Translations under genes and position numbers: made by a program
The notes under the pieces: model-generated
What the model was told of the DNA's origin: nothing
What the model saw: only the letters and a program-made list of their open reading frames with translations
The model's database searches: none
From: Eledone cirrhosa
Taxonomy: Eukaryota
Assembly: GCA_964016885.1 (NCBI GenBank)
Contig: OZ024742.1
Coordinates: forward strand, 193,874,001-193,938,000
Length of the DNA stretch: 64,000 bases
Direction of reading: 5' to 3'
In this document: positions 30,250-54,728 of the stretch, one piece after another
Position numbering within the stretch: the stretch's first letter is position 1
How the letters are laid out: every line of letters begins with the position of its first letter

Positions 30250-30882
30250 ATAAGTTTGTATACGTACATACATATATGTATACAGACGTACAGTAGTATG
30301 TATATATATATATATATATATATATATATATATATATATATAAAATAAATGTTCGGTGAATCCATACGTAGATATATATATATGTGTGCATGTATGTATG
30401 TATGTATATATATATATATATATATATATATATATATATATATATATACATACATACATACATGCACACATATATATATATGTACGTATGGATTCACCGA
30501 ACATTTATTATAATGCTCGGTGAGTTTGTAAACAAACTTCCCGAATTAAGCCATAGAGTATCTAGCAACCATTGTTGCTCATTTGTTCAATACTGACAAA
30601 GGAACGCTGTACCCAGTTTCAAGCTTATTAGCTATCTTCAGTTATGTATACCTTCCTGCAAGATGATTGAACGTCTCAAAGTATATACTTTCCTTATTCA
30701 TATTAACGGCGGAGCAGCCTAATTTGCATATCGAGTGAGTTAATCGGCCGGGCATACCGAAAGCGATAAACGGAAAGAATGAAACGAAATTTCATTTCTC
30801 ACTCTTAGTACGGCCGTTACTTAAATATAAGTAGTATGTATACGCACATACATATATGTATACAGACGTACAGTACTATGTC
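30250..30882 (-). mobile_element. Family G (monomer about 420 bp, HHR-bearing), rearranged copy
   Basis: GGATTCACCGAACATTT...GAAATTTCATTTCTCACTCTTAGTACGG; HHR with CTGAAGA at about 30606-30648. Confidence 0.85.
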
Positions 30883-31022
30883 TATATATATATATATATG
30901 TATATATATATATATATATATATATATATATATATATATATATATATATATATATATATATATATGTAGATAAATCTACCAAGAGTTTACGGTAGTGTCC
31001 AATCCGTATGAAGAACTCAATG

Positions 31023-31169
31023 TTATTTCTGAAGACGGCGTATATGTGTGTTTGGTATGTATATTTAATCTTGATAGTTTGTATAATTTTGTATAATTTT
31101 GTACATAGATCTGTTGAATATGCATGCCAATTCTAACACATATATATCCTAGAAACGATCGTTAAATAA
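31023..31169 (+). ncRNA. Type I hammerhead with long stem II
   Basis: TTATTT-CTGAAGA-cGGcgTATATGTG...CACATATA..CC-GAAAC-GATC-GTT-AAATAA; the element lies between (TA)n tracts at about 30965-31235. Confidence 0.65.
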
Positions 31170-31426
31170 TGAACTTTTTTTGTTTAATATAAGGAACTGT
31201 TTCATTGTTTTATTCATTATTTGTTTAATATTTTATATATATATATATATATATATATATATATATATATATATATATATATATATATACATACATGCAC
31301 ACATATATATGTACGTATGGATTCACCGAACATTTATTATAATGCTCGGTGTAAAGAAACATCCCTAATTAAGCCGTAAAGTGTCTAGCAACCGTCGTTG
31401 CTCATTTGTTCAACACTGACAAAGGA

Positions 31427-31469
31427 ACGTTGTACTAGTTTCAAGCTTATTAGCTATCGTCAGCAACGT
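31427..31469 (-). ncRNA. Minimal type I hammerhead (family G)
   Basis: ACGTTG-CTGACGA-tAGCtaataaGCTt-GAAAC-TA-GTA-CAACGT. Confidence 0.85.
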
Positions 31470-32157
31470 ATACCTTCCTGCCAGGTGATTGAACTTCTGA
31501 AAGTATATACTTTTCTTATGCATATTAACGGCTGAGCAGCCTAATTTGCATATCGAGTGATTTAATCGGCCGGACATACCGAAAACGATAAAAAGAAAAG
31601 AATGTAACGAAATTTCATTTCTCATTCTTAGTACGGCTGTTACTTAAATATAATATGTATACATACATATATGTATACAGACGTACAGTAATATGTATAT
31701 ATATATACATACATGCACACATATATATATGTACGTATGGATTCACCGAACATTTAGTATAATGCTCGGTGTGTTTGTAAACAAACATCCCGAATTAAGC
31801 CGTACAGTGTCTAGCAACCATCGTTGCTCATTTGTTCAACACAGACAAAGGAACGCTGTACTAGTTTCAGGTTATTAGCTATCGACAGCATATATATATA
31901 TGGGTGCATGTATGTATATATATATACATACTACTGTACTTCTGCATACATATATGTATGTACGTATACATACTTATATTTAAGTGTCAGCCGTACTAAG
32001 AGTGAGAAATGAAATTTCGTTTCATTTTTTTCCGTTTATCGCTTTCGGTATGCCCGGCCGATTAACGCACTCTACATGAAAATTAGGCTGCTCAGCCGTT
32101 AATATGCATAAGGAAAGTATATACTTTCAGATGTTTAATCATCTGTCAGGAAGGTAT

Positions 32158-51789: not shown

Positions 51790-52030
51790 TAAAAAATATT
51801 AAAAATAAAAATAAAATAAAATAAAAAATAAAAATAAAAATATTATAGAATACTACAATACTAAAAGAATAAAAATAAAAATAAAAATAAAAAATAAAAA
51901 TAAAAATAAAAATAAAAATAAAAATAAAAATAAAAATAAAAATAAAAATAAAAATAAAAATAAAAATAAAAATAAAAATAAAAATAAAAATAAAAATAAA
52001 AATAAAAATGAAAATAAAAATAAAAATAAA
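51790..52030. repeat. (AAAAAT)n hexamer array
   Basis: Directly visible; source of the poly-IF and poly-YF ORFs. Confidence 0.95.
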
Positions 52031-53203
52031 CCACAAAGAACAACCCTTCAAAGTTAATTGACAATATATTGCCAAGTTCACTACAAGACAAAGCCAAAAA
52101 TTATCTATCAAATCACATCTAGCAAGGAATATCGCAAAAAAAGATTATGATGTCCAATAATGTCTACATATGCTCCTATATTTAATATATAAGTTTATCA
52201 AGTGTAAGGTTAATTCAAAAAATTTGGAGCATCGGCTTTTAGGGTAGCTTAATTTTTCATGAGGAATGTTTAGATAAAAATATTCTATATTCTATATTCT
52301 ATATTCTATATTTTTATATTTTTATATATTTTTACTTATTATCATTATTATTGTTATCTCTGCTTATAATATAATATATATTTTCGATTAGTATATTGAA
52401 ATCTGCTTTCTATTTCTGCTTGATAGATAATCTTGTAGAGTAATCGCAAGAATAATAATACGCTCAAATTTTTATACCACATTGAGAATGTTTTCCGGTA
52501 ACTTTGAATTTGCGGAGTGAATCAGTTGGATTCACATAGACATATGAATTTTTTAAAAAACTAAACATAAGATAATGAATTTTCACGCATTGTGAATACT
52601 TGTTTCATTCAGGAATACTGATATTTACAATATAGTGTAAGTTTTATAAATACTAATACATTAAAACATAGGGTTCTCTACGCCTCGAATATGTCTGGCT
52701 ATTTTTAAATTTTTTCTCTCTCTATATCTCTCTATATCTCTCTATATATCTCCCTTACATTAATACTTGAGCTAAATAAATAAATAAATAAATAAATAAA
52801 TAAATAAATGCATCATTGATACACTTACTCAAAATGACCTCCCACTACCTAATTTTTCTATATCTATATTTATATATGTATCTATCTCTACTTCCTCTCT
52901 CTCTCTCTATATATATATATATATCTTTCTGTCTCTTTACATGAAGCTCTTCGCTTTATCTATTTTTCCATCTCTCTATTTTGTCCCATGCATTTCTTCT
53001 TTTTTTTTTCTTTTTCTTTTTCTTCTTTTTCTTCCTTTTTTTCTTCCTTTTCTTCGTTTTGTCTTTCTTTCTTTCCTATTTCCCTCTTTTCTCTCTCTCT
53101 TTCTTTCTCTCTGTATTTTCACTGCTAGAGTGAACCTCTTCAAATAAAGTTGATGTTTATTACGGTATGTCGAATATATTTATCTATAAAACTGTTTATA
53201 TTG

Positions 53204-53269
53204 TATTTTGTCTGATGAAGGCATAGCATATTGTTAATATGATATCCCCGAAATATATATAATGAAATA
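53204..53269 (+). ncRNA. Type I hammerhead (mirror copy at about 50683-50750, minus)
   Basis: TATTTTGT-CTGATGA-aGG..CATATT/AATATG..CC-GAAA-TATAT-ATA-ATGAAATA. Confidence 0.7.
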
Positions 53270-53443
53270 AATATGGTTTTATAAATATAGTTTTCCATTT
53301 ATTTAATATTGTAAATATACTCCAAGTATTTGTCGAGTGCTTTTATATCAGTTATAAATATTTACTAGTTGTAACCCAACAATTTTAAATATAACTTTAC
53401 ATGTATATATATATATATATATATATATATATATATATATATA

Positions 53444-54728
53444 TAAGTATGTAGACGTACATACATATATGTATACAGACGTACAGTAGTATGTATATAT
53501 ATATACATACATGCACACATATATATATGTACGTATGGATTCACCGAACATTTATTATAATGCTCGGTGTGCTTGTAAACAAACATCCCGTATTAAGCCG
53601 TAGTGTCCAGCAACCATCGTTGCTCGTTTGTTCAACACTGACAAAGAACGCTGTACTACTTTCAAGCTTATTAGCTATCGTATACCTTCCTGCCAGATTG
53701 TTGAACGTATCTACTTATGCATATTAACGGCTAAGTAGCCCAATTTGTATATCGAGTGGGTTAATCGGCCGGGTGCATCGAAAACGATAAACGGAAAAAA
53801 TGAAACGAAATTTCATTTCCCACTTTTAGTACGGCTGTTACTTAAATATAAGTATGTAGACGTATATATATATATGTATACAGACGTACAGTAGTATGTA
53901 TATATATATACATACATGCAGACATATATATATGTACGTATGGATTCACCGAACATTTATTATAATGCTCGGTGTGCGTGTAAACAAACATCCCGTATTA
54001 AGCCGTTGTATCCAGCAACCATCGTTGCTCGTTTGTTCAACACTGACAAAGGAAGGCTGTACTAGTTTCAAGCTTATTAGCAACGTATACATTCCTGCCA
54101 GATTGTTGAACGTATTATATAATTATAATAAATGTTCGGTGAATCCATACGTATATATATATATATGTGTGCATGTATGTATATATATACATACTACTGT
54201 ACGTCTGTATACATATATGTATGTACGTCTACATACTTAAATTTAAGTAACAGCTGTACTAAGAGTGGGAAATGAAATTTCGTTTCATTTTTTCCGTTTA
54301 CCGTTTTCGGTGCACCCGCCCGATTAACTCACTCGATATGCAAATTGGGCTACTCAGCCGTTAATATGCATAAGGTAAGTATATACGTTCAACAATCTGT
54401 CAGGAAGTTATACGTTGCTGAGGATAGCTAATAAGTTTGAAACTAGTACAGCGTTCCTTTGTCAGTGTTGAACAAACGAGCAACGATGGTTGCTGGACAC
54501 TACGGCTTAATACGGGATGTTCGTTTACAAGCACATCGAGCATTATAATAAATGTTCGGTGAAACCATACGTACATATATATATATATGTGTGTGGATGC
54601 ATGTATATATATATATACATACTACTGTACGTCTGTATACATATATGTATGTACGTCTACATACTTATATTTAAGTAACAGCCGCACTAAGTGTGGGAAA
54701 TGAAATTCAGTTTCATTTTTTCCGTTTA
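53444..54728 (+). mobile_element. Family G: tandem monomers in fold-back arrangement
   Basis: Minus arm 53444-54115 (period about 405, HHRs with deletions). Plus arm 54120-54728 (period 420) has an HHR with CTGAGGA at 54412-54454. Confidence 0.9.

Follow-up and report, generated by a model that had tools for sequence, protein, structure and literature searches.

This report concerns family G, a repeat found in a 64,000-nt stretch of the Eledone cirrhosa genome (contig OZ024742.1, here C3:193,874,001-193,938,000), termed the window below. The source genome comprises 3.0 Gb in 1,796 contigs; the window has a GC content of 33% and is rich in (TA)n. Family G is a protein-free tandem unit of ~420 nt with a predicted hammerhead ribozyme. 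It is likely a non-autonomous Penelope-like element (PLE), i.e. a retrozyme without long terminal repeats (non-LTR retrozyme), that is copied into (TA)n by a PLE of the Hydra clade. The element class is known; no description of the family itself was found in the literature searched. An earlier description of the window (the original prediction) proposed an abundant retrozyme with fixed priming sites, which is supported by copy counts, clustered ends and ribozyme covariation across families. The fixed ends and the fold-back arrangement are the published signature of PLEs, which that description had missed.

The majority unit derived from 110 arms is 420 nt long and non-coding, and each unit contains a predicted hammerhead. 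By eye, an open frame of ~55 codons spans the ribozyme. A second subfamily has an insert of ~9 nt, and the inner TA tract varies in length. In the window, the anchors 31320/31740 and 54131/54551 are 420 nt apart as originally predicted, whereas other anchors give 405, 428 and 437. These deviating periods result from the subfamily insert and the variable TA tract. Outside the window, unit spacings lie mostly at 420-426 (17 of 23). Genome-wide there are 10,575 exact matches to the 30-nt ribozyme core (reversed control: 0) and 2,684 to the junction at the 3' end termed site B. Of 40 10-kb segments sampled at round coordinates, most of them from the largest contigs, seven contain a copy. A fair estimate of the copy number is tens of thousands. 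Insertions are mostly dispersed fold-backs of 0.1-3 units. There are also some long arrays, and runs of exact cores 420-430 nt apart represent tandem arrays in the genome. In one long array (G000:C1:70056375-70075359) the core residue C3 is changed to A in many units, frequently in alternate ones. This array is a local amplification regardless of the ribozyme.

The 3' ends of the arms, read in ribozyme sense, are not random. When tabulated, 92 of 104 arms fall into two clusters, in line with the original prediction. The 103 5' ends are scattered and somewhat more frequent in the inner TA tract. Site A comes after unit position 211 and site B after unit position 272, so that the two sites are 61 nt apart; both run into (TA)n, and (TA)n is the target met at the insertion junctions. 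Two sets of insertions were inspected. Set 1, from which four duplicate loci were removed, comprises 35 head-to-head pairs: 21 strict A+B, seven near-A+B, one A+A, no B+B and six with another end. Set 2 is independent of set 1 and was chosen by the B junction alone. From the first 71 B junctions listed, one was left out as too near to its neighbour; the other 70 correspond to 69 distinct places. An inverted G arm is present at 38 of these places and lacking at 31. It ends in the A region in 32 cases (four of them TA-only), elsewhere in six and never at B. The inner junctions of the arms in set 2 mostly overlap by 1-5 nt or hold a short insert.

The genome is rich in PLEs, with 10,595 GIY-YIG candidates and PLE frames of 713 amino acids. 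The PLE open reading frames (ORFs) that were read carry the motifs RW[KR], DKT, YRDD, CxCX5C, GIY-YIG, CxxC and CxH, which are those of the Hydra clade. Together with (TA)n targeting, such motifs are described as marks of this clade (PMC8557442). Further marks of PLEs are 5' truncation, an inverted arm, a one-sided tail and microsatellite targets (PMC8557442, PMC3846280). In PLE3, which served as an autonomous control, the two ends are 88 nt apart. Its pairs are one-of-each in 17 of 25 cases and have an internal end in eight; none joins like with like. The ends of PLE4 are ~66 nt apart, and all seven of its two-armed loci are one-of-each. PLE5 is an autonomous Hydra-type PLE (L352-L354, frames of 784-788 amino acids) with two fixed ends of its own, ~80 nt apart.

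Self-priming on an antisense template is the published model for head-to-head PLE repeats (PMC3846280). Fold-backs might also stem from later DNA rearrangement, and insertions that join two families might be separate insertions fused by deletion. Such an origin appears unlikely. It offers no reason for the use of one site of each kind (no B+B among 38 and 35 pairs), and the short overlaps and inserts at the inner junctions speak against it. In addition, three of 35 G pairs join different subfamilies. At three of the 69 places of set 2 the arm opposite G belongs to an autonomous PLE, i.e. PLE4 (L277 and L227) or a PLE5 end (L235), and all three of these arms end at that PLE's own site A. In favor of fusion, mixed insertions are few (3 of 69), and the mixed case L089 joins the sister family G2 to PLE3 as A+A, which breaks the one-of-each rule. 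Different families also cluster in shared (TA)n tracts, so fusion of neighbors by deletion is possible. Another candidate for a mixed insertion is L011 (~2030-2135), where a G arm adjoins, at its 5' end, an inverted segment that carries another family's classical hammerhead.

If real, the mixed insertions indicate separate priming of the two ends. Tentatively, both nicked strands may prime reverse transcription at different fixed sites of the RNA, as a dimeric enzyme would give. The two RNAs may differ and could even be those of a retrozyme and an unrelated PLE. If this is true, head-to-head PLE repeats would be explained by priming at one site per strand in place of antisense self-priming.

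Regarding the template, the 70 B arms include 43 that extend across the predicted cut site and only three that stop at it; 33 are longer than one unit and six longer than two. Since few arms stop there and many are longer than a unit, the template is not a cut linear monomer. The original prediction named a 420-nt circular template. The data require only a template longer than one unit, which either a circle or an uncut tandem transcript would supply. Rolling-circle reverse transcription of a 420-nt circular RNA, formed by hammerhead cutting and ligation, is rather unlikely. It would account for the arms exceeding one unit and for the uniform subfamily in 23 of 25 multi-unit arms. The mismatch between units in register and out of register is also similar (3.4% vs 3.8%; 25 insertions, p 0.71), the unit folds as a circle with 70% of its bases paired, and retrozymes of coral, mussel and axolotl do make circles (PMC7229834). 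However, uncut homogeneous tandem transcripts fit these data equally, and long tandem arrays exist as possible sources. Two of the 25 arms (L052, L270) are mosaic; such a switch of subfamily within an arm is not obtainable from one circle. Moreover, a PLE used uncut RNA in vitro (PMC11167929). Of 35 insertions, 32 have both arms from the same subfamily; among unrelated pairs, 55% differ in this respect. Thus, both arms usually originate from one RNA or one source locus.

A mechanism for the insertion of family G as a non-autonomous PLE can be proposed. The PLE protein would bind a multi-unit RNA, which may be an uncut tandem transcript or a circle. Both target strands would be nicked, and reverse transcription would be primed at site A by one of them and at site B by the other. 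Microhomology or end joining would then link the two truncated complementary DNAs. With its one-pair helix III and palindromic loop, the hammerhead would show only weak cutting, restricted to the dimer, and insertion would not depend on it. The Poseidon PLE of Anolis provides a precedent. In vitro, two neighboring internal sites serve as starts of its reverse transcription and thereby delimit the tail. Nicking and extension take place on both DNA strands, uncut RNA can be used and hammerhead cutting is not needed; the protein is predicted to be a dimer (PMC11167929).

The predicted minimal type I hammerhead of the window is located at 54413..54453 (+) and is based on the sequence and on covariation with sister families. 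It consists of the 5' strand of stem I (54413-54417), the core CTGAGGA (54418-54424), stem II (54425-54438; T.T at the base), GAAA (54439-54442), the palindromic helix III ACTAGT with the predicted cut after 54448, and the 3' strand of stem I (54449-54453). A loose ribozyme pattern has 40,569 matches in the genome compared to seven for the control; these represent a superfamily that includes family G. A search anchored on stem II and helix III but without the core gave 166 matches, overlapping loci included, of which 152 contain CTGANGA. Among the anchored matches, stem I occurs as CGTTG/CAGCG, CGGTG/CATCG and TATTG/CAATA, and stem II as AGCT/AGCT, TTGT/ACAA and ATGT/ACAT. The base of stem II is T.T in 146 of them and G-C or C-G in 20.

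In four family representatives the core CUGANGA...GAAA...UH is present in type I order with 11 of 11 positions identical, compared to 151 of 300 elsewhere. In an alignment of 14 rows, two-sided changes are found in seven of 11 pairs (3/5 in helix I and 4/5 in helix II), and the covariation score is 0.445 versus at most 0.117 for slid controls. Core identity and compensatory stem changes in the sister families therefore support the ribozyme, and self-cleavage is predicted. The sister families have units of ~467 and 484-502 nt with equal ribozyme geometry (L089:4934-6328, G000:C1:5738327-5752443 and L217). One of them closes stem II with G-C, and one makes an array of ~30 units. The motif ATGCAAAT (54338..54345, +) is kept in sister families. 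More distant relatives with a similar motif and, in some cases, a core resembling that of a hammerhead are found at L187:5194-5377, L275:708-1314 and 48632-48764 of the window. The conserved ATGCAAAT may be a promoter element, possibly of the octamer type. The promoter of newt satellite 2 includes an octamer. This promoter is of the small nuclear RNA type (cited in PMC2220036).

The core readings CTGACGA, CTGAGGA, CTGAAGA and CTGATGA, on which the original prediction was based, are all found in the window as quoted. The claim that variation is confined to position N7 fails, as it omitted three of the eight ribozyme-region copies of the window. Five copies read CTGANGA, one reads CTGTCGA (31.88k, A6 changed) and in two the core is deleted (53.68k and 54.08k). 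In the 110 arms, N7 deviates in seven of 119 readings and the essential C3 in seven of 117. Genome-wide exact counts are 10,575 for C at N7, 133 for A or G at N7 and 218 for A or G at C3, ~20 of the latter in one array. Purines are rarer at N7 than at C3, and N7 variants accordingly reflect mutation after insertion. N7 as a signature of selection was rejected on these counts and on the equal deviations in the arm set. Between the four representatives N7 is free, yet only C or T occurs. The expected conservation of the core over its flanks was observed across families and not within family G. Within the family, the whole core deviates by 1.6% compared to 1.4% at the median non-CpG site; these rates are biased to low values because the arms are the best matches to two window copies, and the background omits unit positions 8-213, which leaves the per-site counts unaffected.

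The decay of the core at the rate of other sites would also be expected if the unit were a satellite at the DNA level or the leftover pseudo-LTR of some autonomous PLE, with a hammerhead-like motif that is no longer selected. In agreement with this, one of nine tested Xenopus retrozyme dimers showed cleavage (10.64898/2026.07.22.740005). Nevertheless, such an origin is highly improbable. The units are arranged head-to-tail and have no ORF, and covariation of the stems is seen between families in which half of the positions are different. Furthermore, there are thousands of dispersed insertions with fixed ends, represented by the exact B junctions, which require a mechanism at the RNA level.

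Several points weigh against family G as a PLE-mobilized retrozyme. The base of stem II (pair 10.1-11.1) is T.T and not G-C. A shuffle test of the covariation yields no probability, since the 14 rows were hand-picked from related families. Rfam Hammerhead_1 gave no match to G at the gathering score or among the best 150 of 173 weak matches, and single-sequence folding of one copy does not favor the hammerhead fold (z -0.35). A parent PLE was not found in a search that sampled a small part of the PLE families (150 scored per search of more than 10,000 candidates); the ends of PLE3, PLE4, PLE5 and the window PLEs are unlike those of G. PLE3 was rejected as parent, as it shares no ends with G and a G arm is present at the 5' junction in none of 34 PLE3 loci. 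Helix III of family G consists of one pair and a palindromic loop and is not a stable helix. A helix III of a single pair and a U.U closing the base of helix II do occur in axolotl retrozyme hammerheads, which cut better as dimers (PMC7229834). T.T at this position of stem II is likewise found in the hammerheads of PLE3 and PLE4.

PLE4 and PLE5 were likewise considered as parents, and their ends are unrelated to G. They are candidate helpers only through the mixed insertions. Family G was found in none of 20 GIY-YIG loci, and a search with the PLE N-terminus gave almost only PLE3. Rfam microRNA matches were dismissed as TA-repeat noise.

Five loci of family G are present in the window (30.25-30.9k, 31.3-32.5k, 48.8-49.1k, 53.4-54.7k and 63.3-63.5k), as originally reported, and sequence comparison confirms the fold-back arrangement of head-to-tail units. 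The common end CCGTTTA of the two longest insertions is found at 32474 and 54728, and the common start TAAG of the inverted arms at 30251 (previously given as 30250) and 53444. The locus that contains the described hammerhead has a 5'-truncated right arm of ~1.4 units (54122..54728, +), which terminates at fixed site B (..CCGTTTA), followed by (TA)n. Its left inverted arm of ~1.7 units (53444..54115, -) terminates at fixed site A (..CATACTTA), again followed by (TA)n, and has lost its two ribozyme cores by deletion. The 'tail' of ~61 nt between sites A and B (54668..54728, +; boundaries from the unit map) contains a hairpin just before B. In the second long insertion, the right arm (31890..32474, +) ends at site B and has an intact core CTGACGA at 32164. 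The left inverted arm (31290..31890, -) has an intact core at 31463 and the damaged core CTGTCGA near 31889. Its outer end lies inside the unit's own TA tract and not at site A.

The remaining copies are smaller. A short arm with a site A end at 30251 (-) is accompanied by a short fold-back piece at 30341-30407 (+), the whole spanning 30251..30407. In a single unit between TA tracts (30446..30880, -) the core at 30641 reads CTGAAGA, and both stem I and helix III are damaged. An older copy (48769..49073, +; 77-83% identical) has the core CTGATGA at 48807 and a partly decayed stem II. The fragment at 63268..63457 consists of the tail region (-) and a short inverted piece in (TA)n.

The window also contains a PLE of the autonomous Hydra-clade type at 39949-44710, with reverse transcriptase and GIY-YIG frames on the minus strand. 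The region 40586-42178 is open for 530 amino acids, and the upstream part (42028-42854) is in other frames. An inverted copy of its 3' 1.15 kb is 98.6% identical, and no canonical hammerhead was found downstream. A second PLE fragment (45795-46859, +) lies between inverted 264-bp ends (45588-48416). These ends hold a canonical type I hammerhead (48326, +, and 45678, -), which matches Rfam Hammerhead_1 with an E-value of 0.044, below the gathering score. A Pfam scan of the window PLE ORFs assigned no family; their relatives carry PF26215 and some PF01541 or PF00078. Short repeats of the PLE5 terminal region are located at 39269-39461, 48463-48506, 57610-57811 and 62995-63133, and a short PLE C-terminal fragment at 11142-11578 (-).

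Elsewhere in the window, a 629-bp tandem triplication with more than 99% identity (1080-2989) may be recent or an effect of the assembly. Nested inverted repeats of 50-600 bp (83-100% identity) surround 51.5-52.4k within 49115-57556, which suggests a large decayed fold-back. By eye, the broken frames at 59828-62213 and 23804-24307 resemble remains of a long interspersed nuclear element endonuclease/reverse transcriptase.

Literature searches (octopus or cephalopod with retrozyme, Penelope or hammerhead; chimeric PLE) found no count of one-of-each pairs, no mixed insertions and no description of family G; Repbase and Dfam were outside their scope, and the supplements of PMC8557442 may hold related families. 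One-sided tails are already in print qualitatively. The family itself is a gain in annotation, as the class is known: Rfam does not detect this repeat despite its tens of thousands of copies. Beyond mere co-occurrence, the anatomy of the insertions ties a retrozyme to PLE enzymes, and thousands of natural insertions allow the formation of PLE inverted repeats and one-sided tails to be counted.

Endonuclease-containing (EN+) PLEs of the Hydra clade (Craig et al. 2021, PMC8557442) and Poseidon of Anolis (Frangieh et al. 2024, PMC11167929) share with family G two adjacent 3' ends, an inverted 5'-truncated arm, a one-sided tail, (TA)n targets and a hammerhead located upstream of both ends. Family G differs in having no ORF and in its tail of 61 nt, compared to 30-40 nt in the literature and 61-88 nt in the families of this genome. 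No sequence is common to its ends and those of the three autonomous families for which ends were read. Also among the closest known systems are the animal non-LTR retrozymes (Cervera and de la Pena 2020, PMC7229834; Li et al. 2026, 10.64898/2026.07.22.740005). They comprise type I hammerheads in tandem repeats, whose circles are expressed in coral, mussel and axolotl (PMC7229834), and have been proposed to be non-autonomous derivatives of PLEs (10.64898/2026.07.22.740005). Like family G, they are low-GC non-coding tandem units with one hammerhead, present in high copy beside PLEs. Their expressed units are 170-400 nt long, whereas family G is slightly longer and mostly forms dispersed fold-backs. 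Circles and cleavage are known for them; family G is known from its sequence, and no sequence-related parent PLE was found for it among the families sampled. The axolotl hammerhead HHR_Amex1 has a one-pair helix III with a palindromic tetraloop, as in family G, and HHR_Amex2 has U.U at the base of helix II (PMC7229834); as in family G, a dimer is predicted to be needed. Both weakening features are united in family G. Compared to the hammerheads of axolotl and newt satellite 2, family G has sisters in the same genome with G-C or C-G at the weak position of stem II.

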